A stretch of DNA of 64,000 nucleotides. It comes from an uncultured Erysipelotrichaceae bacterium (GTDB taxonomy: Bacteria > Bacillota_I > Bacilli_A > RFN20 > CAG-826). Location: NCBI GenBank assembly GCA_900314865.1, contig OMWW01000004.1:1749-65748 (forward strand). The letters run 5' to 3'. Of the stretch, positions 3,963 to 59,581 are shown in pieces. Made by a program: the position numbers and the translations under genes. How positions within the stretch are numbered: position 1 is the stretch's first letter; the number at the start of each line of letters is the position of its first letter. The notes under the pieces are model-generated. The model made no database searches. It was not told the origin of the DNA and saw nothing but the letters and a program-made list of their open reading frames with translations.

Positions 3963-3979
3963 AAAGGAATACAAACATT

Positions 3980-16448: not shown

Positions 16449-16588
16449 AAATTAGATTCTAATATACCCAAGACAGTAACGGACGTGGAGTCTTAATAAT
16501 GTTACCGAGGTGAAGAAAATATCATTTGATTCTCACTGTATATTGGAGCCTCAAAAAAAACAAAACAAATTGAAAAGGAGGTCAAAAC
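16449..16588 (+). promoter_or_regulatory. Possible rplJ (L10) autoregulatory leader
   Basis: 140-nt untranslated spacer with local pairing (TAACGG...CCGTTA-like, GACGTGGAGTC); position matches L10-leader elements in Firmicutes; not verified. Confidence 0.2.
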
Positions 16589-17074
16589 ATGAACAAAGAA
16601 GTCTTACAAGCGAAACAAGAAGTCGTTAAAGAGATCGTTGAAAAAGCAAAAGCAAGTAGTGGTATCGTTGTTGCTGAATATCGTGGCTTAACAGTTGCGC
16701 AAACTCAAGAATTAAGACGTGCTTTAGCCGCTGAACACGCTGCTATGTTTGTCTACAAGAATTCTTTAGTTGAAAGAGCAAGCGATGAACTCGGTTATGC
16801 TGAATTCAAAGAATTACTCTCTGGACCAAACGCTATCATCTTCTCTCAAGATGTTAACAGTGGTGCGAAAGTTCTTGCTAAATATGCGAAAAGATTTGAA
16901 CCTTTAGAAATTAAAGGTGGTTTATTCGAAGGACAATTCGCTGACAAAGCAAAAGTCTTAGAAGTTGCAAAATTACCTGGAAAAGAAGGTATGCTTGCCA
17001 TGTTATTATCGTGCTTACAAGCACCAGTCCGTCAATTTGCCTGTACAGTTAAGGCTGTTGCGGATGCAAAATAA
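16589..17074 (+). CDS. rplJ: 50S ribosomal protein L10
   Basis: 161 aa; RBS AAAGGAGG. Confidence 0.9.
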   Translation: MNKEVLQAKQEVVKEIVEKAKASSGIVVAEYRGLTVAQTQELRRALAAEHAAMFVYKNSLVERASDELGYAEFKELLSGPNAIIFSQDVNSGAKVLAKYAKRFEPLEIKGGLFEGQFADKAKVLEVAKLPGKEGMLAMLLSCLQAPVRQFACTVKAVADAK

Positions 17075-17098
17075 TGCCAATTTAGGAGGAAAAGAAAA

Positions 17099-17473
17099 AT
17101 GGCTAAATTAACAAAAGAAGAAATTATTGCCAGCTTAAAAGAAATGACTGTTCTCGAATTAAACGAATTAGTCAAAGCTGTTGAAGAAGAATTTGGTGTC
17201 ACTGCCGCTGCCCCAGTTGCCGCTGCCGCTGCACCAGTTGAAGAAGAAGCTGCTAAAGGACCATCCGAAGTTAGCTTATTCTTAAAGAGTGCTGGAGCTA
17301 GCAAAGTCCCAGTCATCAAGGCTGTTCAAGCCATCACAGGTTTAGGCTTAATGGATGCTAAGAAATTAGTTGACGCTGCCCCTGTTGCTGTCAAAGAACA
17401 CATTTCACCAGTCGAGGCCGAAGAACACAAGAAAGCTCTTGAAGCTGCTGGTGCTGAAGTCGAAGTTAAATAA
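17099..17473 (+). CDS. rplL: 50S ribosomal protein L7/L12
   Basis: Ala/Glu-rich hinge; C-terminal domain [12 protein letters not shown]. Confidence 0.9.
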
Positions 17474-17502
17474 TTTAACTTTACTATTATCTTGAGGTGA
17501 TA

Positions 17503-40633: not shown

Positions 40634-42544
40634 ATGGAAATTAGAATTAAGAATTTAACAAAAATCTTCCCTGGCGATGCGAAGAAAAATATTCGTGACA
40701 CAATCGCTGTCAAAGATCTCGATTTCGTGGTTGATGATGGAACTTTAGTTGGTTTACTTGGTCCATCTGGCTGTGGTAAATCCACAACTCTTTACATGAT
40801 TTCAGGTCTTCAAACACCAACATCTGGTGAAGTTTGGTTTGGTGATCAAGAAGTTACTAACCTCTCCCCAGAAAAAAGAGGTATTGGCTTAGTCTTCCAA
40901 AACTACGCTCTTTACCCACACATGACCATCTATAAGAACATCGAGTTCCCTCTTACCAACTTAAAGGTTGAGATTCCTCTTGTTACTTTCTTCAATTTCA
41001 CACTTCATTACGAATATGAAATGAAAGAAAACGATGTTGTTGATGGAATCGAAAAGAGTGTTGTTTCTTTGTTAAAGAAAATTGGTCTTAGAAAGAAACA
41101 ATTTGAAACCAAGTTCCAAGATATGGGTGGAAAACTTGATATCTTAGTCCAGCTCAAGAACGTTTCCCCAGCAGTGAGAGATATGTTCAAAGGCAATATG
41201 GAACGTATTATTGAAGCACACCTTGTTGATGAAGAAGAAGTGCAAACTCAAGACGCTTTATATGATTCCACTGTTAGAGCCACTGTTACCAAGACTGGTG
41301 AAAATGAAGTTTTGGGTCTTACAATTAAAGGCCGCCTTCCTAAAGAATTCACAACCGAATTTTTAGATGAAACAATTACTAAATTTAAACATCTTTCTCA
41401 ACATTTTGGTAAACCAGGTGAAGTGGTTATTTCTAAATCACAACGTGGTTATGAATTAATGGGACGTGTCTCAAATGTTAATACTAAAAATCAAGAAGAA
41501 TTACTCAATTCCGTTTCTGCCGAATTAAAACTTGAAAATGCAGCTATTATTGTTAACTCTGCTAGAAATGATGAAATCAATAACGCAATTCGTTCTTTCT
41601 TAAAAGCAAAGAAAGTCGAATTTACCGATTATAAGCTTTATTTCGATAAAGTTCACACAAAGGTATATTTCAAATTAGTTAGAGTTAAAAGAGAAGACGC
41701 TGAAGGCGTTGTCGCTGAACTCGGTGAACTCCTCGGCTTTGAAGATGTCGAAGTTGATATCGCACAAGCTATCTCCCATCGTAAACTCACAAAAGAAGAG
41801 AGAAGAGATATCGTTTATGAAACCGCAAAACTCGTTCAAGTTGATGAATATTTAGAGAGAAAACCAAATCAACTCTCTGGTGGTCAACAACAACGTGTTG
41901 CTATTGCTCGTGCTCTTGTTAAACATCCACGTGTCTTATTATTAGATGAACCATTATCTAACTTAGACGCACGTTTACGTTTACAAACACGTGAAGAAAT
42001 CAGAAGAATTCAACAAGAAACAAAGATTACTTCTGTCTTCGTTACCCACGACCAAGAAGAAGCGATGTCTATTTCTGATCAAATCGTCGTTATGAAGTTA
42101 GGCGAAATGCAACAAATGGGACGTCCACAAGACGTTTACAATTCACCAGCTAACTTATTCGTCGCTCAATTCTTAGGAACCCCACCAATTAACGTCTTTA
42201 AAGGCAAAGTTGATGGTAAGAACGTCTATGTCGGTGAAGATCTTGTCCACGTTTTAGGCGAAGACCTCGGCAAGAGAGATGTTTGGGTTGCCATTAGACC
42301 AGAAGGATTCATTATCGCTAATGCCAAAGACAAGAATGTCTTACACGCCAACTGCGAAATGATTCAAGTTATGGGTCGTGACATTTCTGTTGTTGCCAAT
42401 AACGAATATTGTACAAAACCAACTTTCAAAGCAATCATTTCTGCTGATGATGAAGTCAAAGCAGGCCCTGTTGCTTTAAAAGTTAAACCTCATAAAATTT
42501 TCATCTTTGATGGTGAAACCGAAGAACGTATCTATACAAAGTAA
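40634..42544 (+). CDS. ABC transporter ATP-binding protein, MalK/UgpC type with C-terminal TOBE-like domain and a roughly 270-aa insertion in the helical subdomain
   Basis: Walker A GPSGCGKST; Q-loop VFQNYALYPHMT. The signature LSGGQQQRVAIARAL appears only at about aa 414, and Walker B LLLDEPLSNLD at about aa 436. Confidence 0.8.
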   Translation: MEIRIKNLTKIFPGDAKKNIRDTIAVKDLDFVVDDGTLVGLLGPSGCGKSTTLYMISGLQTPTSGEVWFGDQEVTNLSPEKRGIGLVFQNYALYPHMTIYKNIEFPLTNLKVEIPLVTFFNFTLHYEYEMKENDVVDGIEKSVVSLLKKIGLRKKQFETKFQDMGGKLDILVQLKNVSPAVRDMFKGNMERIIEAHLVDEEEVQTQDALYDSTVRATVTKTGENEVLGLTIKGRLPKEFTTEFLDETITKFKHLSQHFGKPGEVVISKSQRGYELMGRVSNVNTKNQEELLNSVSAELKLENAAIIVNSARNDEINNAIRSFLKAKKVEFTDYKLYFDKVHTKVYFKLVRVKREDAEGVVAELGELLGFEDVEVDIAQAISHRKLTKEERRDIVYETAKLVQVDEYLERKPNQLSGGQQQRVAIARALVKHPRVLLLDEPLSNLDARLRLQTREEIRRIQQETKITSVFVTHDQEEAMSISDQIVVMKLGEMQQMGRPQDVYNSPANLFVAQFLGTPPINVFKGKVDGKNVYVGEDLVHVLGEDLGKRDVWVAIRPEGFIIANAKDKNVLHANCEMIQVMGRDISVVANNEYCTKPTFKAIISADDEVKAGPVALKVKPHKIFIFDGETEERIYTK

Positions 42545-42562
42545 CTAAAGGAGGCTAAGTAA

Positions 42563-43675
42563 ATGTGGAATAAAATCCTACAATTCTTGCATATCAAAAA
42601 GAAGCCTCAACTACAAGCGGCTGGTGGCCCTGCTTTAATGACCGCAGAACCAGAAGTTCGCCCAGATTACGACGAAGGATACAACAAAGAGACAAATACG
42701 ATTATTCGTCTAGTGTCTCCAAAGAAAAAGAATCCTAAAGTCTATCAAGTTACTGGTATTGATGATGTTGCAAGTAAAAACAACTGGAAAGCTTGGTTAT
42801 ATTTAGCACCTGTTATCGTTTTGATATCAGTCTTCTTGCTTTATCCTCTTGTAAATACAATTTTCATCTCTTTTGCAGAGAACTATGAATATTCAACCGG
42901 AAAATTCACTGGTATTACCTTAAAGAACTTTGGTGAAATCTTTGGTTGGACAGAAATTAATGGTGTTAAGGAAGAGTTCTTTACTAAGTATGCTATTCCT
43001 AATACATTCATTATTACATTTGTAACCGTTCCTGTTTCTATTTTGTTAGCGCTTATTATTTCCGTTGCTTTAAATAGCATCAAATGGTTCCAAAAAATCT
43101 TACAAACAACATTCTTCCTCCCTTACGTTACTAACGCAATGGCGGTTGGTCTTGTTTTCTCAGTCTTATTTAATAAGACAGGTATTATTAATTATCTTTT
43201 TGGCACTGATATTAAATGGGTTTATGGTGCGGAACGTTGGACCGCTATGATTCCTCTATGCTTATACATCGTTTGGAACAGCATTCCATTTAAGATTTTA
43301 ATTTTCTTAAGTGGTTTACAAGGTATCGATAAGCAATATTATCAAGCAGCCCAAATCGATTCTTGCCCAAAATGGAAAGTTCTCACAAAGATTACTGTTC
43401 CATTACTTTCACCGCAAATCTTATACATTATGATTACAAGCTTTATCGGTTCGTTTAAGGAATACACCTCAGTTGTTTCTATCTTTGGTGGTCCTGGAAC
43501 GATGGGTAAGGCTTCAACCGATAAGAATATGGAAACCATAGTCTTCTATGTCTACGATAACGTCGAACTCGGAAAGACATCTCGAGCCGCTGCTGCAGGT
43601 GTTTTCCTCTTCGTAGTTATCTTGATATTCACCTTTATTCAAATGAAGGTATCGAAGACTAGGGTGCATTATTAG
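42563..43675 (+). CDS. ABC transporter permease (MalF/UgpA-like) with N-terminal cytoplasmic extension
   Basis: 6 TM; EAA-like loop region; RBS AAAGGAGG. Confidence 0.75.
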   Translation: MWNKILQFLHIKKKPQLQAAGGPALMTAEPEVRPDYDEGYNKETNTIIRLVSPKKKNPKVYQVTGIDDVASKNNWKAWLYLAPVIVLISVFLLYPLVNTIFISFAENYEYSTGKFTGITLKNFGEIFGWTEINGVKEEFFTKYAIPNTFIITFVTVPVSILLALIISVALNSIKWFQKILQTTFFLPYVTNAMAVGLVFSVLFNKTGIINYLFGTDIKWVYGAERWTAMIPLCLYIVWNSIPFKILIFLSGLQGIDKQYYQAAQIDSCPKWKVLTKITVPLLSPQILYIMITSFIGSFKEYTSVVSIFGGPGTMGKASTDKNMETIVFYVYDNVELGKTSRAAAAGVFLFVVILIFTFIQMKVSKTRVHY

Positions 43676-43690
43676 TAGGAGGCGATATTA

Positions 43691-44659
43691 ATGGAAAACG
43701 TTAGAAAATATATCAATTTTAAAGACGTAAAAGTTAATAACAATATCGTCCTATCTATTGAAGAAGCCAGCAAATCCGCTGAAGCGATTAAAAAGACAGA
43801 GCGTGTATTCAAAATTATTACAACAATTTTGACTTATGCATTTATTCTTGCTTTGGCTATAACTGTCTTATTCCCATTCTATTGGATGATTATCACTTCT
43901 TTAAAACAAAGAGCTGAAATTATTCAACAAAAACAAACTTTCTTCCCATCAATTGTTATGTGGTCAAACTACATGTATGTTTTCGAGGTCTTTGACTTCA
44001 CAACATATATGAAGAACACAATTATCGTTGCTATTTTCTCGACTGCTGGTACGTTGCTTACAACTATTTTTGCAGCTTTCGCATTTGCAAGGCTCAAATT
44101 TAGAGGTAATAGCACTGTCTTTGCAATCTTCTTGATGACGATGATGATTCCTGGTGAAATGATGGTTATTTCCAATTACATCACCGTTAACTCTTTTGGG
44201 TGGATTAGCAATCAAACCGCAATCAAGGCGTATCTTGCAATGATTGTTCCGTTCATGGTAAGTGTCTTCCACATCTACTTGCTGCGTCAGAATTTCAAAC
44301 AAATTCCTAACGAATTATATTTAGCAGCTAAAGTTGACGGAAAGAGTGACTGGGACTTCTTATGGAAAGTCATGGTTCCTCTTGCAGCACCTACCTTAAT
44401 TTCCATCACAATTCTTAAATTTATGGGAACATGGAACTCCTATGTTTGGCCAAACTTGGTTACCAAAGAAGAAGAGTACAAACTCATTTCTAACGGATTA
44501 CGTGGTAGTGGATTCACTAACCCTGACGATCCAACAATGATTGAGTATGGTTATCAAATGGCAGCCTCTGTTTGTGTTACCGTCCCATTATTCCTCTTAT
44601 TCGTCTTCTTCCGTAAATACATTATGAAGGGTGTCGGAAGAGCCGGTATTAAAGGTTAA
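43691..44659 (+). CDS. ABC transporter permease (MalG/UgpE-like)
   Basis: 6 TM; conserved EAA loop (LAAKVDGKSDWDFLWKVMVPLAAP); RBS AGGAGG. Confidence 0.75.
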   Translation: MENVRKYINFKDVKVNNNIVLSIEEASKSAEAIKKTERVFKIITTILTYAFILALAITVLFPFYWMIITSLKQRAEIIQQKQTFFPSIVMWSNYMYVFEVFDFTTYMKNTIIVAIFSTAGTLLTTIFAAFAFARLKFRGNSTVFAIFLMTMMIPGEMMVISNYITVNSFGWISNQTAIKAYLAMIVPFMVSVFHIYLLRQNFKQIPNELYLAAKVDGKSDWDFLWKVMVPLAAPTLISITILKFMGTWNSYVWPNLVTKEEEYKLISNGLRGSGFTNPDDPTMIEYGYQMAASVCVTVPLFLLFVFFRKYIMKGVGRAGIKG

Positions 44660-44703
44660 TCAAAGGTTAGTAGATTATTATAAAGATATAAGGAGACAAA
44701 TCT

Positions 44704-46239
44704 ATGAAAAGAAAAAACTTATTTATTCTTCCTCTAGCAATGTTTGGAGTTTTATGCTCCGTATCTTGTGGTGGTACAAAAGATACAACAGTGCCAGATT
44801 CCGATCCTGTCGTCAATCCTGATGATGAAATGACTGCAGACCCATTAGAAGGAAAAAACGTTACTATTCGTTTTGATAGTCAATGGGGACAATCAATGAA
44901 CAACTTATTTCATAGTTGGGCAAGCGAATTCATGAAGCTTCATCCTAGCGTCACTGTTGAAGTTAACAAAATTCAAGGCGATTATAATGGTGTCAAAGAT
45001 AAAGAAATTTCTGATATTTCCGCCGGTTACAATCAATGGGGAGATATAGTTTCTTGTTATCCAGACCATTGTGTTGAATACATTGCCACAGGTAGATGTG
45101 TTGATTTAATGAAATTTGTTGATAATGATGATCCTAATATTGCATTAGGACCAAACAGCAGAAAAGACCTAACTGGTGCGGCTAAAAAATACTTTGAAAT
45201 TAAGTATAATGACTTTGGCATGTACTGTGCTCCATTTGCGGTCTCTACTGAATTTATGATGTATAACAAAGAATTGTTAACATGGACAATCCCAGGAGTT
45301 AACAATGACGAAAGAATTACCGAAGATTATCTTAATGATATGACTTGGGAAGAGTTCTTTACTGTTTTCTGCCCTAATTTCATGAAAGAAAACGCTAGAA
45401 GACCAAAAGAACAACAATTGTTAATTACTGATGACGGTGAATATTCTGTTCTTGGCTACGATTCTGATGATAATGCATTTATCTCATTATTAGAGCAATA
45501 TGGTTACCCATATACTTCAGTTAACGATGTTCGTGAAGGTAGTATTGACTTCAACACACCTGAAGCAAGACAACTTGTAAAGAATTGGAACCATTATAGA
45601 AACATGAATTATGTAATTACAGAAGGCACAAACGAAAAAGTTAAACCATCAAACGGTATGTTCGCTAGTAAAAAATGCTTATTTGCTATCGGTTCAACTG
45701 GTGGTATTAACTATGCTTCATCTGCATTAGATAATTCTGGATTAGACATCAAAGTTGGTGCTCTTTCAATTCCTCACGCTGAAGGCCATAGACCAGCTAT
45801 CGTGCTTCAAGGTGGATCCTTATGTATCCTTTCTCATACAACAGAAGATGATGCTGATAGACAATTAGCTGCGTGGATGTTCTATAAATACATTACACAA
45901 CAAAAGAACTGTATCCGTTGGGGAAGTTCAACTGGTTATGCTCCTATTAGAAAGTCTGTTTATGCAACTAGTGCTTGGAACCAAATTACAAAATTAACAG
46001 ACGATCAAGGCAACGACAAAGTTGGTATTAGTTTATTAACTGCTTTATCTAGTAGATATGTTCAATTACACTCCGACGAAATGTTCTTAAACGAAGTATT
46101 CACAGGTTCTAGTGTTTGTAGACAAGAAGTTGGCAGCTTATTTAAATTATTGCTCGGCAAGAAAGAAGCCGAATGCACTGATGACTATATTGCTGCTCAA
46201 TTTGAACAAACTGTGAAAAACATCAAGTTAGTTATGTAA
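44704..46239 (+). CDS. Lipoprotein, probable extracellular solute-binding protein of the adjacent ABC system (paralog 1)
   Basis: Lipobox LCSVSCGG; shares motifs KKCLFAIGSTGG and WMFYKYIT with the next gene. Confidence 0.5.
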   Translation: MKRKNLFILPLAMFGVLCSVSCGGTKDTTVPDSDPVVNPDDEMTADPLEGKNVTIRFDSQWGQSMNNLFHSWASEFMKLHPSVTVEVNKIQGDYNGVKDKEISDISAGYNQWGDIVSCYPDHCVEYIATGRCVDLMKFVDNDDPNIALGPNSRKDLTGAAKKYFEIKYNDFGMYCAPFAVSTEFMMYNKELLTWTIPGVNNDERITEDYLNDMTWEEFFTVFCPNFMKENARRPKEQQLLITDDGEYSVLGYDSDDNAFISLLEQYGYPYTSVNDVREGSIDFNTPEARQLVKNWNHYRNMNYVITEGTNEKVKPSNGMFASKKCLFAIGSTGGINYASSALDNSGLDIKVGALSIPHAEGHRPAIVLQGGSLCILSHTTEDDADRQLAAWMFYKYITQQKNCIRWGSSTGYAPIRKSVYATSAWNQITKLTDDQGNDKVGISLLTALSSRYVQLHSDEMFLNEVFTGSSVCRQEVGSLFKLLLGKKEAECTDDYIAAQFEQTVKNIKLVM

Positions 46240-46269
46240 CCAATTATTAAATATATAAGGAGAACAATT

Positions 46270-47775
46270 ATGAAAAACAAAGCTCTTAAATTATCTACAT
46301 TACTTGTCGCTATTGCATCCATGGGATTGGTTTCTTGTGGCGATAAAAGTGAAGCATCTTCTAGTGAAACTGTTGATCCATCTTCAACGTACGCCAAGGT
46401 AGAAGTTCCTGAAGGAATTACTCCTCAAGTTACTTTCTGGCACACATTTGGCCATAATATTGAAGCCGCTATCAAACAATTTGGTGCAAACTTTAAAGCT
46501 ATGGTTAAACAAAAAGAAGGAATTGATGTTGAAATGAAATTCTTCCAATATGGAGGATACAACGACACCATCAATATCGTTGGCTCTAACTTGGCAATTG
46601 GCAAAGGTCCAACCATGGCGGTTGCTTACCCAGATTCTATTGCCACCTTAATGGTTCAATATGATAAGAATATCAATATGGATCCATATATTAACCATGA
46701 AGTATACGGACTTGGTAGTGATGGCTATTTAGGTGACACCATTAAAGGTGAATCTGATTTTATCAGTTCTTATCTTGAGGAAGGACGTCAATTTAATGTT
46801 TCTGGAACGTATGTTCTTCCATATATGAAATCATCTGAAGTTATGTTGTATAACTTAGATGCTCTTAAAACTATTATTCCTGATTATAATTCCGATGTAA
46901 CTGAAGGCATGGTTCAAGATTATTTATCTGACATTACTTTTGATGAATTAATGTCAATCGCTGACTATATCGTGAAAAATAAAGCAAAATATGGTTTTGA
47001 TGATTTAGAATATCCTGTTTATTATGATTCAGATTCCAATATGCTCATTTCTCATCTTGAACAAAAGAAATTGAAATTTGCTACTAGAGGTGAAAACGAT
47101 TCTGTTATTTTAAATCTCGATTCAGAAGCAGACCCAGAGAATTACGCTGCTGCATACGACATTTTAGATACTTATAGAACCTGGCATAAAAATGGTTTAA
47201 TCACCACTAAGGGTGTTGAGAACGCCTATTCGTCTGATTATTTCAAAAATAAGAAATGCTTATTTGCCATTGGATCTTCAGGTGGATCTGGATATACATT
47301 CCCTGACGAATTTGCTCTTGGTGTTGCAAAACCTCCATATGCTGGAGACAGAAGAGATGCCAAATACATTTCTCAAGGTCCAAGTATTGCCTTCTTCAAT
47401 AGCAAAGGCGTTTCTGATGAACAAAATTACTATAATTCTGTGTATTCTTGGAAATTCTATAAATATATTACAAATACAGTTAACAACGTTAAAACTTGTG
47501 TTAACAACTCAGAAGGCTATGTTCCAGTTAAAAAATCATGTTACAAATCTGGACCATGGCAAACTTATCTTGCTGACAAAGACAATAACTATGTTAAAGT
47601 TGCAAAAGTCATTCGTAATGACATCGAAGATAACTTCATTACTTCATTAGTCTTTAATGGAAGTGCAACCTATCGTACTGAAGCAACTGCTTTAGTTGCT
47701 AACGTCCTTTCTACTGATACTGACATTGCATCATTAATCGCAACCGCTGTATCAAAAACTAAATTAGCGATGTAA
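46270..47775 (+). CDS. Lipoprotein, probable extracellular solute-binding protein (paralog 2)
   Basis: Lipobox GLVSCGD; KKCLFAIGSSGG, WKFYKYIT motifs. Confidence 0.5.
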   Translation: MKNKALKLSTLLVAIASMGLVSCGDKSEASSSETVDPSSTYAKVEVPEGITPQVTFWHTFGHNIEAAIKQFGANFKAMVKQKEGIDVEMKFFQYGGYNDTINIVGSNLAIGKGPTMAVAYPDSIATLMVQYDKNINMDPYINHEVYGLGSDGYLGDTIKGESDFISSYLEEGRQFNVSGTYVLPYMKSSEVMLYNLDALKTIIPDYNSDVTEGMVQDYLSDITFDELMSIADYIVKNKAKYGFDDLEYPVYYDSDSNMLISHLEQKKLKFATRGENDSVILNLDSEADPENYAAAYDILDTYRTWHKNGLITTKGVENAYSSDYFKNKKCLFAIGSSGGSGYTFPDEFALGVAKPPYAGDRRDAKYISQGPSIAFFNSKGVSDEQNYYNSVYSWKFYKYITNTVNNVKTCVNNSEGYVPVKKSCYKSGPWQTYLADKDNNYVKVAKVIRNDIEDNFITSLVFNGSATYRTEATALVANVLSTDTDIASLIATAVSKTKLAM

Positions 47776-47794
47776 TTCATAAGGAGGAGGTATT

Positions 47795-49534
47795 ATGAAA
47801 AACAAACTTTGTAAAGCTTTGGTTGCCTCTGCGTTAATTGCCTTTGGAACTGGTCTAGCCAGTTGTGGAGGTAATAGCGGCGGAAACAACTCACCTTCCG
47901 ATCCAACTCCAGCAGTTTTGGAACCTGCTTTATCTACTGATAGCATTGTTTTAACTCAAGGAACAAACGATACTGTTTCCTTAAACAACGTTGATAAAGA
48001 ATTAGAATTCAGTTGGGTTTCAAGCGACCCAGATATTGCTAGAGTGACATTCCGTAAGAATATGGCGATGATTTCTGGCGATAATCCTGGTGAAGCTGTC
48101 GTTACAGCGACCGTCACTTATGCGGATGGTTCATCTGTTTCAAAGAGTCTTCAAGTTGTTGTTAATGAGCTGGTCCATGTTGAAGTTCCTTTAACAGATC
48201 CTCATCCAGATGGATTTGTAGAATATGTTAATGATCTTCATTTAGCTTTAGATTACAAGGAAAAAGACTTCTTTGTTGATGGCGTTGGTGAATTTGATCT
48301 TTGGATGGCGATTGATGGGGATACCGCCCACTTCACACCAAAAGTCACAAAAACATCTAGAGAGACTGTTAAGGCTAGATTTTATGGCATTGATACCCCT
48401 GAATCTACTGGTAACATTCAACCTTATGGAAAACAAGCCAGTAATTTCACTAAGGATAAGTTAATGAACGCAAAAGAACACGGAACAATTGTTCTTGCTG
48501 GTGTTAGTAGTGAATATGGAAAACCAACAACTGACGCTAATGGTCGTTATTTATGTTGTGTTTGGATTCACGAAACAAAGAAAAATGCATCATTTGATGA
48601 ATTGGTTAACCTTAATCTTTGGATTATTCAAGAAGGTTATTCTAATCCAGGAAGCACAGATAAAATGCCAGACTATTCTCAAACATTTGTTAATGCTTTC
48701 AACCAAGCGGTTCAATGCGAATTAAAAATGCATTCTGGAAAAGAAGATCCATTATTCCCAAAAGAAGCATATAGAACTTCGATTCCTGACATCATGAAAC
48801 AAGTTAACTCTTATTTAAATGGCGAAACTGATTTAGACCCATTTGCGGTTGGAATTAACTACATTTTTAAAGGCACTGTTTCTGGTTTCTCTAATAATAC
48901 ATTATTCTTACAAGCGTACGACTTTATTGAAGATAGATATTATGGAATTAACTGTTTCTGTGGCATGTCTGCAATCAATGAAATGTATAAAATTCCTGGT
49001 ACTTTATTAGAAGTAACTGGTACAGCCCAAAATAGTGAAAACTTCGGTTTCCAAATAACTGGCTTGGCCGGCAATTTCCCTGCTCTTCCAGAATTTGCTG
49101 ATGATGACGATGTTAAGATTCTATTAAAAGCTGAAGAAAACACAAACGATGATACAAAACTTGTCAAATTCCCAATGACCGCTAAAGAATTAAATGATGC
49201 AGTTACTAAGAAGAGCACAAGATTTGAGTACTTAAATAACTGCGTTTGTTTAACCGATAACCTTGTTGTCAATTATTTCAAACCAAATGCTGATGAAAAC
49301 AAATTCACAGTTGGATTTGAAGGTGTTGAATTCGATGTCTATTTAGGTGGTTCTTATGCTGGTGATCCAGATAATCCAAATACAGTTTGGAACAAAGAGT
49401 CTCAATGGAAAGGCAAGACGATGTCTATTAAAGTGGGATTGTTGACTTATCACACTCTTCAAAGCACTGGTGAAATTCGTTTCCAATTAGTTATTCCACC
49501 AGAATTAAAGAATAATCTTGTCTGGGTCAAATAA
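47795..49534 (+). CDS. Membrane-anchored lipoprotein nuclease: Big_2 domain, staphylococcal-nuclease (SNase/thermonuclease)-like domain and a C-terminal domain of unknown function
   Basis: Lipobox GLASCGG; Big_2 (VSSDPDIARVTF...GEAVVTATVT); SNase active-site region ARFYGIDTPESTGN at nt about 48378-48420. Confidence 0.6.
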   Translation: MKNKLCKALVASALIAFGTGLASCGGNSGGNNSPSDPTPAVLEPALSTDSIVLTQGTNDTVSLNNVDKELEFSWVSSDPDIARVTFRKNMAMISGDNPGEAVVTATVTYADGSSVSKSLQVVVNELVHVEVPLTDPHPDGFVEYVNDLHLALDYKEKDFFVDGVGEFDLWMAIDGDTAHFTPKVTKTSRETVKARFYGIDTPESTGNIQPYGKQASNFTKDKLMNAKEHGTIVLAGVSSEYGKPTTDANGRYLCCVWIHETKKNASFDELVNLNLWIIQEGYSNPGSTDKMPDYSQTFVNAFNQAVQCELKMHSGKEDPLFPKEAYRTSIPDIMKQVNSYLNGETDLDPFAVGINYIFKGTVSGFSNNTLFLQAYDFIEDRYYGINCFCGMSAINEMYKIPGTLLEVTGTAQNSENFGFQITGLAGNFPALPEFADDDDVKILLKAEENTNDDTKLVKFPMTAKELNDAVTKKSTRFEYLNNCVCLTDNLVVNYFKPNADENKFTVGFEGVEFDVYLGGSYAGDPDNPNTVWNKESQWKGKTMSIKVGLLTYHTLQSTGEIRFQLVIPPELKNNLVWVK

Positions 49535-49543
49535 GGAGGTTAT

Positions 49544-50020
49544 ATGTATTGCTATCATTGTGGTTACAAAATTAATGAAGAAGCAATTGAAGCAAAGTCT
49601 TCAACAAGACAAAAATACGCTGAAGATGCCTCTATAGATGCTGATGTTCAATATGTTTGCCCACGTTGTGGACATTTGATTCATCATGGCTATAAAAAAG
49701 AAGATTTAAAATCTTTATCTGCAGCATGCCATGCAGAATTGCAAAGAGGAAGAAATGATTTTGCTAGAGGAATGTCTTCTGCATCCATTGCGATCATTTT
49801 AGGAATTACAGGGTTCATTTTCCTCTTGCTTTCAAGAAAACCCGATAATTTATATCGTGTTACCTCATCCTGTCCTGAGTTCTGGATTTTCATCGTACTC
49901 AGTGTTATCGCTGTTATCCTTTTAGTCACCGGAGTATTCCTTGTTTTTAAGGGTGTTCTTAGAAAATCGAAATACACCGTACTATTAAAAGATATTAACA
50001 CCGAGACATTCGTTCAATAA
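49544..50020 (+). CDS. Zinc-ribbon (CxxC...CxxC) membrane protein with 2 TM; unknown function
   Basis: YCYHCGYKI...CPRCGHLIH then two hydrophobic helices; RBS AAGGAGG. Confidence 0.4.
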   Translation: MYCYHCGYKINEEAIEAKSSTRQKYAEDASIDADVQYVCPRCGHLIHHGYKKEDLKSLSAACHAELQRGRNDFARGMSSASIAIILGITGFIFLLLSRKPDNLYRVTSSCPEFWIFIVLSVIAVILLVTGVFLVFKGVLRKSKYTVLLKDINTETFVQ

Positions 50021-50075
50021 TGTCCCATAGAATGTCTCATAATCCAAATTCATTAATCTAAAAAAGGAGGAAAGT

Positions 50076-53000
50076 ATGAAAAAAGGATTAATTTTCACAG
50101 CATTAATGTGCACTCTAACTATGGGGTTAGTTGCATGTGGCAATAATGCTAGTGATACACCTCAAGTCCCAGTAGCTACATTATCCAGTATCAAACTTAA
50201 TATTGATAATGTCGAAAAGACTTTTAAGGTTGGTGACACTTTTAGTTCTGCTGGATTAGTCGTTACTGCTAAATATAGCGATGGTAGCGAAAAAGCCGTT
50301 GAAGCAGGAAAATATAGTGTTTCCTCACCTGACATGAGTACCTCTGGTACTAAAGTGGTTACTGTCACATATGAAGGCAAAACCGCTCAATACAACATTA
50401 CTGTTGAACCTGCAGAAATTGTTGTTTCTATTACCAATAAGGAAGACTTCGAACCTGAATGGAGAGTTGGTGACAGTTCAAGAACACTCAAATTATCCGT
50501 TACTGGTGTCGTTGTTGACGCCGCTATTAGAAGTGGCGATTTAGTTATTTCTGCCTCTAATCCTGAAGTCGTCGGAATTGATGGAAGAGAAATTTCTGCT
50601 AAAGCTGCTGGAACCACAACCATTACCGCCACCTACAAGGGTGATGCAAGTGATAGTGTTGAAGTTACAGTCTTGCCAAAGAAATTGTTAAGTAAAGTTC
50701 TTAATCCTGTCGAAGAAGAAGAATATTTATTAGCAAGAGCAGATGGCAATAATCCTAATGCTTTGATGTATGTCAAAAACGACATGTCAAACACATTTTA
50801 TCTTGGATATGAAAGTGACAGAACGAAAGCACCTGTTTTAACTGTTAAAATTGATGAATCTGCTGAAGATTATAAATATGAATTAGTCTTTGATGCAGGT
50901 ACTGATAATGAACATAATATTGGCGCACTTTGTACTGCTAAAGGAAAATATGCTACAGGTTTTGTTGGCAACAAAATTAGTGGATTAGATGTTCCACAAA
51001 CATTCTGGAAAGTTGACGAATTAGGTCAATTATGGTGCAAAGTCCAAGACGATGGTGCGGATGTTGAATTATTACTTGGTGGAGCAGGAATTTATAACAC
51101 CACAAGCGCTGACTTACCAAGTAAAATTAAAAATCCAGCATTCATCTACACTGAAAACGCTGAAGAAAAACCTGCAACTGAAATTAACGTTTCTCCTGAA
51201 TCGTTAGAATTAGTTCCAGGACAAAACAAGAGATTAACCGTCTCATTATTACCTGCTGATACAACCGATACAGTTTCTTATATTCCAAGCAACACAGATG
51301 TTATTGAAGTTTCTGACGATGGCATTGTTACTGCCTTAACTGCTGGTGAAGCAGATATCCTTGTTAAGGCAAACGATGATGTTTCCAAAACAGTCCACGT
51401 TGTTGTTTCTGGTGAAGCAATCAAATTTGGTACTAGAGAAGCGCCATTAACTGTTGATGAAGTGTTAGCAGAAATCGTTAAATGTGCCGATGAAGGAGAT
51501 TCTTCTTCATACCCATTCTACGTTTCTGGTAAAGTTTCTTCTTCCACTTATAACACTGAGAAGAAAAACGCAACCATTACATTAAAAGGAACATCTGGCA
51601 ATTTAGAAGCCTATAGAGCAATTGGTGACGAGGGTATTGATGTATCTACCATCAAAGCCACTGATGAAATTTTAGTTGTTGGTTATTCTGATATTTATAA
51701 CAAAAAATTACAACTCGCTCCATTAGCTAATGCCGGAACAAAAGAATATGGTGATCCAACCGTTTTAAGCGTTGTTCCTGGTGAAGGTGGAGATGAACCA
51801 GAAGATTCTGAATATGGTTCTTTCGAGTCACCATTAACTCCAGAACAAGCCGTTGCTTTCTTAGACAAATATTTCCCAGATGGAAATACATCCTCAAAAG
51901 ATTTATATGTTGAAGGCGAAGTTTCTGAAGTTTCTTCACACGAAAAACCAAATATTTGGTTAAAGAGTTCTGATGGCGCAACCGCTAAATATTTTGAATC
52001 CTATATGTCAACCATGGCTGATGGTGTAGAAAAACCAGAAGTCGGTGATACAGTTATCATTAAAGGTAAAGCAAAAATCTATACTTCCGGTTCTAATAAA
52101 ACATATGAATTAACCAATGTTGGTCAAACCGATTATCCACAAGTCTTAACAGTCACTAAAGGCGAAGGTGGTGGCGGTGGAGAAGAAATCCCAGAACCAA
52201 CCTTAGTCAAAGGCACAATTGCCGAATTCTTGGCAGATACAGCTGGAAACGGCAAACAATTATATGAAGTTAAAGGCACAGTCTCTAAATGGGCAAACGA
52301 CAAGAGTGGTAACCCAAATCCAGACGGTACTAAATATGGTAACTTCTATATGACCGATGATTCCGGTGCTGAATTATATGTTTACGGCGCAACTTCCAAT
52401 GCTGAAAAATTAGCTTGGAATTCTACTTCTGGTGTTTACTCTTTCTCAAACCCACAAGACTTCTTAACTGGTGAATTAACCAAAGATATTAGAATTGGTT
52501 CTGTCGTTACAATGAAAGTCACTCGTTGTGACTACAAAACAACCTTAGAAGGTCAAGGTATCGTTACTGCTGTTGAAAACGAGGTTGTAGAATTAACCGG
52601 AATTAAATTCGACGTTGAAGGTGATTCAATCGATTTAATCGAAGGTAGAACAAAAGCTATTAAACTTCTTCCTCTTCCAGAATTTGCGGAATTACCAGAA
52701 GAAGATCCAACTTGGGAATCTAGCAATCCTGAAGTTGCGACCATTGCTGAAGGTAACAACGTTGGTGCTCTCATTACCGCTGTTAAAGAAGGTACAGCAA
52801 AGATTACTGCTAAATATAGCGATAAAATCAAAGCTGAAATTACAGTTAACGTTGTGAAAGATTCTGGTGAAGAACCTGCTTATGTCGATGCAACCATGAC
52901 TAAAGGCACTAACGCTTATGATGATGTCAAAGTTAATGGTAAGCCAGCTATCAAAGTCGGCAAAAGTTCGGCTGGTGGAGATATGACCATTACCGTTGGT

Positions 53001-53270
53001 GCTGGTGCAACCGAATTAGTGTTCTATGCCGCCGCGTGGAATGGTGTTACAGGCTTAGCACTCAATATTACAGGTGCAACAGTCAATCCAACATCAGTTG
53101 ATTTAACCGCCGATTCTGCAATTGCTGGTACTGCAACAGATTATGCTATCTCAGATGAATCACAATACAAATTTGTTATTGCTTTATCTAATATCACAGA
53201 AGAAACAGTTATTAAACTTGAAGGCTCTATTGCAAAGAGATTTGTCGTTTGGGGCGCTCAATACAAATAA
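50076..53270 (+). CDS. Large surface lipoprotein (1064 aa) with multiple Big_2/Ig-like domains
   Basis: Lipobox GLVACGN; recurrent Big_2 segments (for example VTALTAGEADILVKAND, KEGTAKITAKYSDK); Gly-rich linkers. Confidence 0.55.
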   Translation: MKKGLIFTALMCTLTMGLVACGNNASDTPQVPVATLSSIKLNIDNVEKTFKVGDTFSSAGLVVTAKYSDGSEKAVEAGKYSVSSPDMSTSGTKVVTVTYEGKTAQYNITVEPAEIVVSITNKEDFEPEWRVGDSSRTLKLSVTGVVVDAAIRSGDLVISASNPEVVGIDGREISAKAAGTTTITATYKGDASDSVEVTVLPKKLLSKVLNPVEEEEYLLARADGNNPNALMYVKNDMSNTFYLGYESDRTKAPVLTVKIDESAEDYKYELVFDAGTDNEHNIGALCTAKGKYATGFVGNKISGLDVPQTFWKVDELGQLWCKVQDDGADVELLLGGAGIYNTTSADLPSKIKNPAFIYTENAEEKPATEINVSPESLELVPGQNKRLTVSLLPADTTDTVSYIPSNTDVIEVSDDGIVTALTAGEADILVKANDDVSKTVHVVVSGEAIKFGTREAPLTVDEVLAEIVKCADEGDSSSYPFYVSGKVSSSTYNTEKKNATITLKGTSGNLEAYRAIGDEGIDVSTIKATDEILVVGYSDIYNKKLQLAPLANAGTKEYGDPTVLSVVPGEGGDEPEDSEYGSFESPLTPEQAVAFLDKYFPDGNTSSKDLYVEGEVSEVSSHEKPNIWLKSSDGATAKYFESYMSTMADGVEKPEVGDTVIIKGKAKIYTSGSNKTYELTNVGQTDYPQVLTVTKGEGGGGGEEIPEPTLVKGTIAEFLADTAGNGKQLYEVKGTVSKWANDKSGNPNPDGTKYGNFYMTDDSGAELYVYGATSNAEKLAWNSTSGVYSFSNPQDFLTGELTKDIRIGSVVTMKVTRCDYKTTLEGQGIVTAVENEVVELTGIKFDVEGDSIDLIEGRTKAIKLLPLPEFAELPEEDPTWESSNPEVATIAEGNNVGALITAVKEGTAKITAKYSDKIKAEITVNVVKDSGEEPAYVDATMTKGTNAYDDVKVNGKPAIKVGKSSAGGDMTITVGAGATELVFYAAAWNGVTGLALNITGATVNPTSVDLTADSAIAGTATDYAISDESQYKFVIALSNITEETVIKLEGSIAKRFVVWGAQYK

Positions 53271-53290
53271 TTGTTAATCACATCATATTA

Positions 53291-53316
53291 GGGGCGTGTT
53301 TACACGCTCCTTTTAT
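53291..53316 (+). terminator. Rho-independent terminator after the large lipoprotein gene
   Basis: GGGGCGTGT-tt-ACACGCTCC followed by TTTTATT. Confidence 0.55.
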
Positions 53317-58541: not shown

Positions 58542-58617
58542 GGTCCCTTAGCTCAGCTGGTAGAGCAACTGACTCTTAATCAGTGGGTCAAAGGTTCGAA
58601 TCCTTTAGGGATCACCA
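58542..58617 (+). tRNA. tRNA-Lys (anticodon CTT)
   Basis: Cloverleaf: acceptor GGTCCCT/AGGGATC, D-arm GCTC...GAGC, anticodon stem ACTGA/TCAGT with loop CTCTTAA, T-arm AAAGG-TTCGAAT-CCTTT, genomic CCA. Confidence 0.85.
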
Positions 58618-58630
58618 TCTTGAAAAAAAT

Positions 58631-58656
58631 GAGTCGAATAATTCGACTCTTTTTTA
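58631..58656 (+). terminator. Rho-independent terminator after the tRNA
   Basis: GAGTCGAAT-a-ATTCGACTC followed by TTTTTTAT. Confidence 0.65.
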
Positions 58657-58684
58657 TATTTTTATATTCACGTATTATAAATAT

Positions 58685-59581
58685 ATGAAAATAGGAAAGA
58701 CCGCTCTTAATTTATTAAATTACTTTATTAGAAAAGATATCAAAAAACGTCGTAAGCATTATCCTCCTCATTCTTTTAAAGAATGGATAAACATTCCTTA
58801 TATTGATGATGGAAATCCTTATCACACTTATGATGTCTATTTAGCTAATGAAGAAATTAGAAAAAGAGTGTGCATTATGTATATACATGGTGGTGCTTAT
58901 ATCTTAGGTGAACATCAAGATAATTATCCTTTTGCCTATTATTTATTAAATAAGGGATACGATTTTGTTTCGACTGATTATATTCCTAATGATGGAAATA
59001 GAAGCTCTTTAGAACTTGTTAAAGACGTCGTTAATAATGTTCTCCATGTTTTATCTCGTCTAAAGGAATATGACTTACAAGACGATAAGATAGTATTTGC
59101 TGGTGATTCAGCAGGTGGACATTTCGCTCTCCTTTTAGCGGAACTCTTCAAAAACAAAGAAGCCGCAAAAGAATTAGGGTTTGAACTACCTGAATTAGAT
59201 ATTAAAGCAGTTATATTATGTTGCCCTGTATATAATTTCAAAGATATGGGCAAAGGCATCATGTCTAAAGCAGGATTAAAAAGAATGTTAGGTCCTTCTT
59301 ATAATGATCCAGAGTTATTAATAAAATTAACACCTAGAACATATATTGATTCATTTAATTTGCCTATCTTTGTTTCGACGTGTACACATGATTTTATTAG
59401 ACCAGAGTCACTTCTTATTAATGAAGATTTAAAAGAGAGAAAGAATTATACATTTTTTGATCTCCAATGCGAAGACAAGAAAGTTGATCACGTACATAAC
59501 GTCGTTAAAACAAATTTAAAAGAATCTATCATAGTGAATGATGCAATTGTTGATTTTATTATTAAATATACGAGTAAGTAG
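58685..59581 (+). CDS. Alpha/beta hydrolase fold-3 esterase/lipase (HGG oxyanion motif, GDSAGG nucleophile)
   Basis: MYIHGGAYILGE and FAGDSAGGHFAL. The track ORF begins inside the tRNA; the realistic start is ATG 58685 directly after a TATAAA-type -10. Confidence 0.7.
   Translation: MKIGKTALNLLNYFIRKDIKKRRKHYPPHSFKEWINIPYIDDGNPYHTYDVYLANEEIRKRVCIMYIHGGAYILGEHQDNYPFAYYLLNKGYDFVSTDYIPNDGNRSSLELVKDVVNNVLHVLSRLKEYDLQDDKIVFAGDSAGGHFALLLAELFKNKEAAKELGFELPELDIKAVILCCPVYNFKDMGKGIMSKAGLKRMLGPSYNDPELLIKLTPRTYIDSFNLPIFVSTCTHDFIRPESLLINEDLKERKNYTFFDLQCEDKKVDHVHNVVKTNLKESIIVNDAIVDFIIKYTSK

Follow-up and report, generated by a model that had tools for sequence, protein, structure and literature searches.

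We analysed a 64,000-nucleotide (nt) stretch of contig OMWW01000004.1 from an uncultured Erysipelotrichaceae bacterium, referred to below as the window. It carries a group of genes in which the components of an ATP-binding cassette (ABC) importer stand next to a surface lipoprotein of the staphylococcal nuclease (SNase) type. An initial annotation had described six co-directional, closely packed genes each preceded by a Shine-Dalgarno (SD) site, and the open reading frames (ORFs), the gaps and the ribosome-binding motifs were all found. The six core genes, with ORFs exactly where they had been placed, encode the ATPase, two permeases, two solute-binding proteins (SBPs) and the nuclease:

40634-42544, + strand: ABC ATPase, 636 amino acids (aa)
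42563-43675, + strand: permease 1, 370 aa
43691-44659, + strand: permease 2, 322 aa
44704-46239, + strand: SBP1 lipoprotein, 511 aa
46270-47775, + strand: SBP2 lipoprotein, 501 aa
47795-49534, + strand: nuclease lipoprotein, 579 aa

The gaps from the ATPase to the nuclease are 18, 15, 44, 30 and 19 nt, and an AGGAG or GGAGG motif lies 5' of the start codon in every one of the six genes. Among the ORFs of the window that reach 150 aa, 38 out of 42 are on the + strand, so co-directionality alone is a weak argument, and we consider the six genes a unit because of their tight spacing and, above all, because of the conserved synteny described below. The importer had been called fused to the nuclease; the genes are adjacent but they are not a gene fusion. 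Likewise the operon was thought to run from the ATPase to the nuclease. Those six genes are there, but the predicted unit is wider and comprises nine genes at 38526-53270, with one additional gene upstream (g1) and two downstream (g8 and g9):

38443-38470, + strand: promoter-like site TTAATA-16-TATAAT, the top + strand consensus match (10 of 12 positions)
38526-40616, + strand: g1, a 696-aa membrane protein and first gene of the block (ORF and hydropathy)
49544-50020, + strand: g8, 158 aa, an N-terminal CxxC...CxxC zinc ribbon and two transmembrane (TM) helices
50076-53270, + strand: g9, a 1064-aa surface lipoprotein (lipobox LVAC) with Ig-like and OB-fold domains
53290-53311, + strand: intrinsic terminator after g9, a 9-bp stem containing 6 G-C pairs, then a T run

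Spacing within the nine-gene unit is 9-55 nt throughout with an SD site ahead of each gene, including the 17 nt between g1 and the ATPase gene and the 9 nt between the nuclease stop and g8. The promoter-like site sits in the 115-nt gap before g1, the sole long upstream intergenic gap; it is a consensus match only, in a region where the count of promoter-like sites is not above that of a shuffled control. The only convincing terminator of the unit is the one after g9 (-18.6 kcal/mol, z -5.7, with 0 of 200 shuffles folding as well), and the total of terminator-like sites in the region equals the shuffled expectation. A terminator scan combined with folding energies revealed no credible internal terminator within the unit, so the splitting of the operon that had been named as a risk is not seen in this respect. 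Given the tight gaps, the SD sites, the promoter-like site before g1 and the terminator after g9, the nine genes are predicted to form one transcription unit.

An internal terminator-like site at 44745-44761 was dismissed for its weak stem, its lack of a T run and a z of -2.2, and minus-strand ORFs of 60-128 aa lying inside genes were taken as spurious overlaps. Upstream of the cluster, and likewise upstream of the nucleotidase genes described further below, an Rfam scan detected neither a riboswitch nor a leader.

Components of the importer

The ATPase matches ABC_tran (6e-34) as two separate stretches in Pfam, and its best NCBIfam matches are UgpC (5.6e-104), GlcV (1e-94) and MalK (3.5e-79), all under the equivalog cut-offs. 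It has a Walker A motif, a Q-loop, an LSGGQ signature and a C-terminal regulatory domain. Its description as MalK-like holds for its UgpC/MalK-type identity but not for its size, the 636-aa protein being larger than MalK because of a 263-aa insertion. The earlier reading overlooked this insertion and also missed the nuclease's OB folds and the nearby lipoproteins of nucleotidase and phosphatase type.

40970-41758, + strand: ATPase insertion, 263 aa (aa 113-375), between the Q-loop and the signature motif

The insertion is predicted to consist of about three tandem ferredoxin-like (ACT/S6-like) alpha/beta domains. AlphaFold2 (AF2) models it as repeated beta-hairpin-plus-helix units with a predicted local distance difference test (pLDDT) of 85-91; the insertion and the C-terminal domain are the usable parts of the ATPase model, the canonical nucleotide-binding domain being unreliable (pLDDT 25-50), probably as the result of too invariant an alignment. 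Over six genomes the length of the insertion is near-constant (one 1-aa indel in one of them), and it diverges faster than the ATPase core, with 41-72 % identity versus 83-99 %. An exhaustive HMMER/phmmer search of 1.84 billion representatives found the insertion common to only 13 clusters, all of them metagenomic proteins, and every one of the best 120 full-length database relatives of the ATPase is 635-645 aa long. That the insertion serves as a cytoplasmic, ligand-sensing regulatory module is put forward as an idea only.

Both proposed permeases are borne out by BPD_transp_1 domains, and hydropathy gives six hydrophobic segments in each. Permease 1 is UgpA/MalF-like (BPD_transp_1 1.4e-17; UgpA 2e-19, MalF 1e-17) and permease 2 is UgpE/MalG-like (BPD_transp_1 3.2e-16; UgpE 6.7e-27, MalG 1.7e-21).

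The two paralogous binding lipoproteins of roughly 500 aa are also found as described. SBP1 is of the CUT1 type, with lipobox SVSC. The SBP_bac_1/8 match anticipated for both lipoproteins was obtained for SBP1 (SBP_bac_8, 3.3e-28) but not for SBP2, which is without any Pfam match. SBP2, with lipobox LVSC, is nevertheless a full-length paralogue of SBP1 (BLASTP 4e-31, 26 % identity), and profiles built from 12 orthologues of each protein align by hhalign with a probability of 100 % and an E-value of 4.9e-94. The SBP2 family profile finds the sugar-binding protein 7c0x at 5.4e-18 and UgpB (4aq4) at 2.4e-9, while the SBP1 family profile finds 7c0x at 3.6e-16 and UgpB/UspB at 2e-15 to 1e-14 (UgpB 4aq4, 1e-14). 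Because the family profiles match solved CUT1 binding proteins (best at about 5e-18 and 4e-16), the solute-binding fold expected of both lipoproteins is confirmed. The duplication is old, with both copies retained in all 12 genomes, and two substrate specificities, as had been proposed, are plausible.

The CUT1 component set is therefore complete: a MalK/UgpC-type ATPase with its C-terminal regulatory domain, two BPD_transp_1 permeases and an SBP_bac_8-type protein. The ATPase is a single nucleotide-binding domain broken by an insertion, unlike the duplicated nucleotide-binding domains of CUT2/Bmp-type importers (RnsBACD, PnrA), and neither SBP gave a Bmp (PF02608) match in Pfam or NCBIfam.

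These similarities leave room for two readings in which nucleic acid is not the source of the cargo. In the first, the locus would be an organophosphate or phosphate scavenging island, with a true Ugp-type importer for glycerol-3-phosphate or glycerophosphodiesters and with hydrolases that are co-located as phosphate releasers, in a Pho-regulon-like manner, and do not feed the transporter. The best NCBIfam matches for the four component types are indeed UgpC, UgpA, UgpE and UgpB, the SBP profiles match solved UgpB/UspB at 1e-9 to 2e-15, the neighbouring hydrolases release phosphate, and the Mycoplasma homologues have traditionally been annotated UgpCAE. Every Ugp match nevertheless falls far under its equivalog cut-off (348 of 432 bits for UgpC, 70.5 of 335 for UgpA, 94.9 of 297 for UgpE and 15.9 of 411 for UgpB), and the sugar-binding 7c0x scores equal or better. 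In the second reading the importer would be an ordinary oligosaccharide or sugar CUT1 system, and the nuclease and the Ig/OB lipoproteins would share no more than the operon with it, serving to clear matrix DNA, to adhere or to bind glycans. The closest solved relatives of both SBPs are sugar-binding proteins, the JGI name of a 71 %-identical ATPase is 'multiple sugar transport system ATP-binding protein', the surface proteins are acidic, and glycogen-metabolism genes (GlgB and a phosphorylase) are also present in the window. Both readings are taken up again below with the evidence from the nuclease, from the related genomes and from Mycoplasma.

The surface nuclease and the three additional genes

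The last of the six core genes had been described as encoding an SNase-like lipoprotein, and this is supported by a PF00565 match at 1.5e-8 (35.4 bits, the gathering threshold being 21) together with the lipobox LASC. In a phmmer alignment, residues D174, D176, R195, D200, T201, E203 and R251 correspond to D19, D21, R35, D40, T41, E43 and R87 of the Staphylococcus aureus nuclease. These seven catalytic and Ca-binding residues are invariant over a 47-homologue alignment reaching down to 37 % identity, so that the feared loss of the active site is not seen. The AF2 model (pLDDT 90, predicted template modelling score 0.84) contains the SNase OB-like fold and has four parts, of which the first is a disordered lipid-anchored linker and the others are:

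47927-48169, + strand: Ig-like (Big_2-type) domain, aa 45-125
48212-48754, + strand: SNase catalytic domain, aa 140-320
48842-49531, + strand: C-terminal OB-fold region

In the C-terminal region, an OB barrel (about aa 350-430) is followed by a second beta-rich domain (aa 440-579). To judge from its residues and its modelled fold, the 579-aa lipoprotein appears to be an intact staphylococcal nuclease of the Ca-dependent type set between an Ig-like spacer and OB folds. A total of 678 homologues of the nuclease were found, and the identical protein is encoded on cattle-rumen metagenome contigs.

The largest of the additional genes, g9, combines Big_2 (2.8e-15) and Big_3 (1.8e-11) domains with a tRNA_anti_2 OB-fold match that is below cut-off (1.8e-5); its orthologue in one related locus (L004) has a tRNA_anti-codon OB match at 9.6e-13. 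Both the length of g9 (523-1197 aa) and its domain content vary across related loci. BLASTP detected no similarity of the C-terminal region of the nuclease to g9 or g1, and the OB folds of the nuclease and g9 are therefore not recent duplicates. Contigs with the identical nuclease carry a g9 of 1061, 1064 or 1204 aa, which fits a fast-evolving surface protein.

The g1 product begins with a signal or anchor at its N-terminus, continues with a large extracellular part and ends in 3-4 C-terminal TM helices and a conserved cytoplasmic tail. Its family profile matches only the leucine-rich repeat (LRR) surface protein 4gt6_A (1.4e-9), and the extracellular part is poorly conserved, with a single short BspA-type LRR stretch. 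The invariant residues, in NDEFRR, NPxD and the terminal DVADDGT, are concentrated in the C-terminal TM and cytoplasmic segments, a pattern that hints at an intracellular or membrane partner. For g8 the zinc-ribbon matches in Pfam are weak.

Surface folds of a DNA-binding type together with a nuclease, and the conserved membrane proteins g1 and g8, could also be read as a competence-like DNA-uptake apparatus or as a defence against foreign DNA, in which the OB-fold proteins and the nuclease process or destroy incoming DNA. We consider this very improbable. Domain scans turned up no ComEC, ComEA or ComF and no pilin-like domain in any gene, and it is this absence of Com-type domains that makes such an apparatus unlikely; moreover, the membrane channel belongs to a standard ABC importer for small solutes, with two permeases and binding proteins, and SNase breaks nucleic acid down without specificity to mono- and dinucleotides, an activity incompatible with the uptake of long DNA.

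Conservation across genomes and neighbouring genes

To place the block in a wider context we compared 11 related loci from rumen and gut metagenome-assembled genomes (L001-L005 and L009-L014), obtained by a genome scan and contig look-ups. All 11 have the same order: a g1-like gene, the ATPase, two permeases, two SBPs, the SNase, a g8-like gene and a large surface protein. The orthologues measure 615-927 aa for g1, 635-645 aa for the ATPase and 474-710 aa for the SNase, whose identity goes down to 41 %. The protein at the g8 position has 157-164 aa in all 11 loci and 46-74 % identity in L001-L005. In L009 (2904-4836) a 750-nt gap precedes an ATPase called with only 393 aa, which probably results from a frameshift or a faulty assembly in the insertion region and does not represent a natural variant without the insertion.

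Upstream, the neighbour of the block is conserved, an RDD-family gene lying directly before g1 in eight loci (L001-L004, L009 and L012-L014). The downstream flank takes at least four forms, with DJ-1/DUF1846/P-type ATPase in some loci, PFOR in others, and phosphatases, adenosine deaminase or RhuM in still others. Constant gene order combined with a changing downstream flank suggests that the block has been kept while its surroundings were rearranged. The constancy also bears on the two readings introduced above. The organophosphate island fails to explain why all 11 loci so strictly have a nuclease gene within the transporter operon, or why OB-fold proteins are there. As for an ordinary sugar importer, no glycoside hydrolase was found in or beside the block in 12 of 12 loci, while enzymes of nucleotide processing recur there.

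Such enzymes are encoded in the window itself, upstream of the block:

32805-34703, + strand: nucleotidase lipoprotein, lipobox FSSC, with Ig-like repeats, Metallophos and 5_nucleotid_C (Pfam)
34705-36096, + strand: phosphatase lipoprotein, lipobox VISC, with Big_3, fn3 and Y_phosphatase3 (Pfam, 3.9e-24)
37325-38410, + strand: RDD-family membrane protein upstream of g1 (RDD, 2.7e-12)

The nucleotidase has Metallophos (1.6e-8) and 5_nucleotid_C (4.8e-6) domains with the motifs NDTHG, GGDMFQG and GNHEFD; its best NCBIfam match, far under the cut-off, is the YfkN-type 2',3'-cyclic-nucleotide phosphodiesterase/3'-nucleotidase/5'-nucleotidase (2e-36). The phosphatase gene starts 1 nt past the nucleotidase stop and encodes a CX5R loop, HCSHGKDRTG. 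In the related genomes, Y_phosphatase3 genes are found directly downstream of the block in L002, L005, L011 and L014, nucleotidase genes directly downstream in L009 and L014, and an adenosine deaminase gene downstream in L010. This recurrence of phosphatase, nucleotidase or adenosine deaminase genes beside the block, downstream of it in six of the 11 related loci, argues for a role in nucleic-acid use.

The initial annotation had assigned the DNA to the Mollicutes, which finds no support here. The genetic code is standard, with TGA ending 2 of 38 long ORFs and interrupting none, and the related genomes are labelled Bacilli, Erysipelotrichaceae or Bacillales.

Several further observations concern the surrounding sequence. 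Between the phosphatase gene and g1, at 36160-38410, lie two multi-TM genes, one for a 399-aa protein without family match and one for the RDD protein, with a 35-nt overlap as called. A 71-aa RelB-antitoxin-like ORF at 32579-32794 (Pfam RelB, 3.6e-8) is served by a promoter-like sequence of its own and ends 10 nt before the nucleotidase gene; no toxin partner is visible beside it, and it may be a small DNA-binding regulator. It is preceded by a strong terminator at about 32494-32520. The lipoprotein at 30732-32471, without Pfam or NCBIfam match, contains an acidic linker of Pro/Asp-rich repeats (DPVDPGDDPVDPGDDP), and its true start is likely the internal MIMKKK...VSSC lipobox. Downstream of the block, a tRNA at 58542-58614 (Rfam, 72 bits) extends over the GTG codon called as start of the ORF at 58583-59581, a BD-FAE/alpha-beta hydrolase whose true start is probably further downstream. 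The regions 2103-6382 and 16449-30675 are housekeeping, with glycogen branching enzyme (GlgB), glycogen phosphorylase and an L10 leader at 16449-16539; four ORFs fit rpoB/rpoC (1199 and 1303 aa) and fusA/tuf (691 and 394 aa), judged by length alone.

Relation to known systems and proposed function

Linkage of an SNase gene to ABC transporter genes in Mycoplasma, which the initial annotation had cited, is documented, and a model in which nucleic acid is digested and the products are imported has already been proposed there (PMC3585158, PMC4045577). In Mycoplasma agalactiae the operon MAG_5030(P80)-5040-5050-5060-5070 comprises P80, a modelled binding protein, the SNase MAG_5040, an ATPase and two permeases, all co-transcribed, for which a digest-and-import model was put forward; its ATPase MAG_5050 is described with 'two ATP-binding domains' (PMC3585158). 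The Mycoplasma bovis genes MBOVPG45_0307-0311, of which 0311 is P81, were called a 'putative nucleotide transporter operon' with an ATPase gene of 2103 bp, and the M. bovis homologue of MslA binds DNA in both the single- and the double-stranded form (PMC4045577). The linkage is likewise reported for MHO_0730 of M. hominis, Mpn133, Mhp379 of M. hyopneumoniae and MbovNase (PMC9740415). MnuA, the other example that had been cited, does not belong here: it is a nuclease of the EEP family (PMC12115388) and is not ABC-linked (PMC9740415).

The operon described here shares with those of Mycoplasma an SNase lipoprotein on the surface, with an identical set of catalytic residues, beside one ATPase and two sugar/Ugp-type permeases. 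By published description, and not by sequence, it also resembles them in its oversized, split ATPase (the 2103-bp gene of M. bovis; 636 aa here) and in having lipoproteins of binding-protein fold in the operon, whose counterparts there would be P80, P81 and MslA. Further Mycoplasma counterparts are MslA-MGA_0676 of M. gallisepticum and MPN133/MG_186 of M. pneumoniae and M. genitalium with their downstream ABC genes. The sole sequence-level bridge consists of matches to the NCBIfam model of the Mycoplasma lipoprotein P68, obtained for 12 of 12 SBP2 and 8 of 12 SBP1 orthologues; all are below the cut-off and cover the N-terminal lobe only (best 8.8e-18, among SBP2 orthologues), and P68 is mhp390, distinct from P80 and MslA. 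There are also differences. The order here is ATPase-permease-permease-SBP-SBP-nuclease, compared to SBP-nuclease-ATPase-permease-permease in Mycoplasma. Two binding proteins, each of about 500 aa, take the place of what in M. bovis is one lipoprotein from a 2187-bp gene (about 730 aa), and the nuclease has 579 aa with Ig and OB-fold domains compared to 250-390 aa in Mycoplasma. Three extra conserved genes (g1, g8 and g9), the standard code and a non-pathogen rumen host also set it apart. The operon is thus a further example of the Mycoplasma-type nuclease-linked ABC operon with elaborations, and the type of system is already described.

The recurrence of the SNase-ABC pairing in Mycoplasma, independently and with a different gene order, suggests a functional coupling between nuclease and importer and speaks against a sugar importer that has a nuclease in its operon by position alone. 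Two systems outside Mycoplasma share some of its parts. YhcR of Bacillus subtilis joins an OB fold, an SNase and a 5'-nucleotidase in one wall-anchored (LPXTG) protein, and YfkN of the same species is a 2',3'-cyclic-nucleotide phosphodiesterase/3'-/5'-nucleotidase. The locus has in common with them the surface OB fold, the SNase domain and the Metallophos/5_nucleotid_C nucleotidase modules. In contrast to YhcR, these modules are on separate lipoproteins, one joining OB folds and SNase and another holding the nucleotidase, with a lipid instead of an LPXTG anchor, and the nuclease gene is inside an ABC importer operon; to our knowledge neither YhcR nor YfkN is transporter-linked. With UgpBAEC and MalEFGK2 of Escherichia coli the importer shares the type of binding protein, the two permeases and the MalK/UgpC-type ATPase with its C-terminal regulatory domain, and it differs from them by scores under the equivalog cut-offs, the 263-aa ATPase insertion, the two larger paralogous SBPs and the nuclease in the operon.

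Evidence on the substrate of such importers comes from a different M. bovis operon, MBOVPG45_0747-0751, a GtsABC-like 'glycerol' ABC system, annotated for glycerol or glycerol-3-phosphate, which metabolomics showed to import inosine and thymidine and to help the cells grow on extracellular DNA (PMC12838404). It is CUT1-type and shares the binding-protein-dependent class with the importer described here, a likeness by class and not by sequence, and its operon is without a nuclease gene. Disruption of that operon gave no defect in taking up glycerol-3-phosphate or glycerol but a defect in nucleoside uptake, which weighs against reading Ugp-like scores as evidence for an organophosphate importer and makes a nucleoside substrate plausible for this transporter class (PMC12838404).

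Taken together, these results lead us to favour, with moderate confidence, a surface system that, as the initial annotation had proposed, scavenges extracellular nucleic acid and is joined to an ABC importer with a presumed nucleic-acid-derived cargo. Extracellular DNA or RNA would be held at the membrane by the OB folds in the nuclease and g9, and the nuclease would cut it to short oligonucleotides and 3'-nucleotides. Enzymes of the SNase family leave 3'-phosphate ends, with short oligonucleotides and 3'-nucleotides as products, and for that reason a 3'-nucleotidase/phosphatase step yielding nucleosides would fit; the YfkN-type nucleotidase and the Cys-phosphatase lipoproteins (32805-36096) could remove the phosphate. 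The two SBPs might then capture two product classes, most likely nucleosides, or else nucleotides or short oligonucleotides, and deliver them to the two permeases, with import driven by the ATPase. The ACT-like insertion of the ATPase may act as a cytoplasmic regulatory module, and g1 and g8 may be accessory membrane components.

Several points weigh against this scavenging model. The substrate is presumed, here and for the Mycoplasma counterpart alike, and co-transcription is a prediction from sequence features. For each of the four transporter components the top scores are those to Ugp (glycerol-3-phosphate) and sugar systems, and none has a likeness to the established Bmp/PnrA nucleoside-binding family. 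The isoelectric points (pI) are acidic: 4.7 for the nuclease, 4.4 for its OB region and 4.5 for g9, and the pI of SBP1 and SBP2 is 4.9. Such acidity is unusual for non-specific nucleic-acid binders, and OB folds can bind oligosaccharides and glycans too. The S. aureus nuclease is strongly basic. Finally, the synteny may partly reflect shared ancestry within one lineage. On account of the Ugp- and sugar-like components, the acidic proteins and the inferred substrate, the organophosphate island is a serious rival, although we regard it as unlikely; an ordinary sugar importer that has surface proteins in its operon is a second such rival, to our mind also rather unlikely.

It is conceivable that the block represents a distinct, lineage-wide CUT1 subclass for nucleic-acid breakdown products (nucleosides, 3'-nucleotides or short oligonucleotides), characterized by two specialised SBPs, an allosteric ACT-like sensor in the ATPase and, as accessory membrane subunits of a new sort, g1 with its invariant cytoplasmic tail and the zinc-ribbon protein g8, but this extension is tentative and on the doubtful side. 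If it were true, these standard-code genes would provide the first easily expressed model for the substrate of the Mycoplasma nuclease-linked ABC transporter. Because they have no UGA-Trp codons, the SBPs and the nuclease should be directly expressible in E. coli for ligand screening. The locus therefore bears on a mycoplasma question, namely what the cargo of the nuclease-linked 'sugar-type' ABC transporter is. We see its main value in an expressible model for this old question and in the 263-aa ACT-like insertion, an unusual site for a regulatory module that merits a structural look; it is a new example of a kind of system that was known before. The genome-reduced Bacilli of gut and rumen are uncultured in spite of their abundance, and their means of acquiring nucleotides are largely inferred. 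The conserved nuclease-importer operon and the recurring nucleotidase and phosphatase lipoproteins point to extracellular nucleic acid as a staple nutrient of this lineage.

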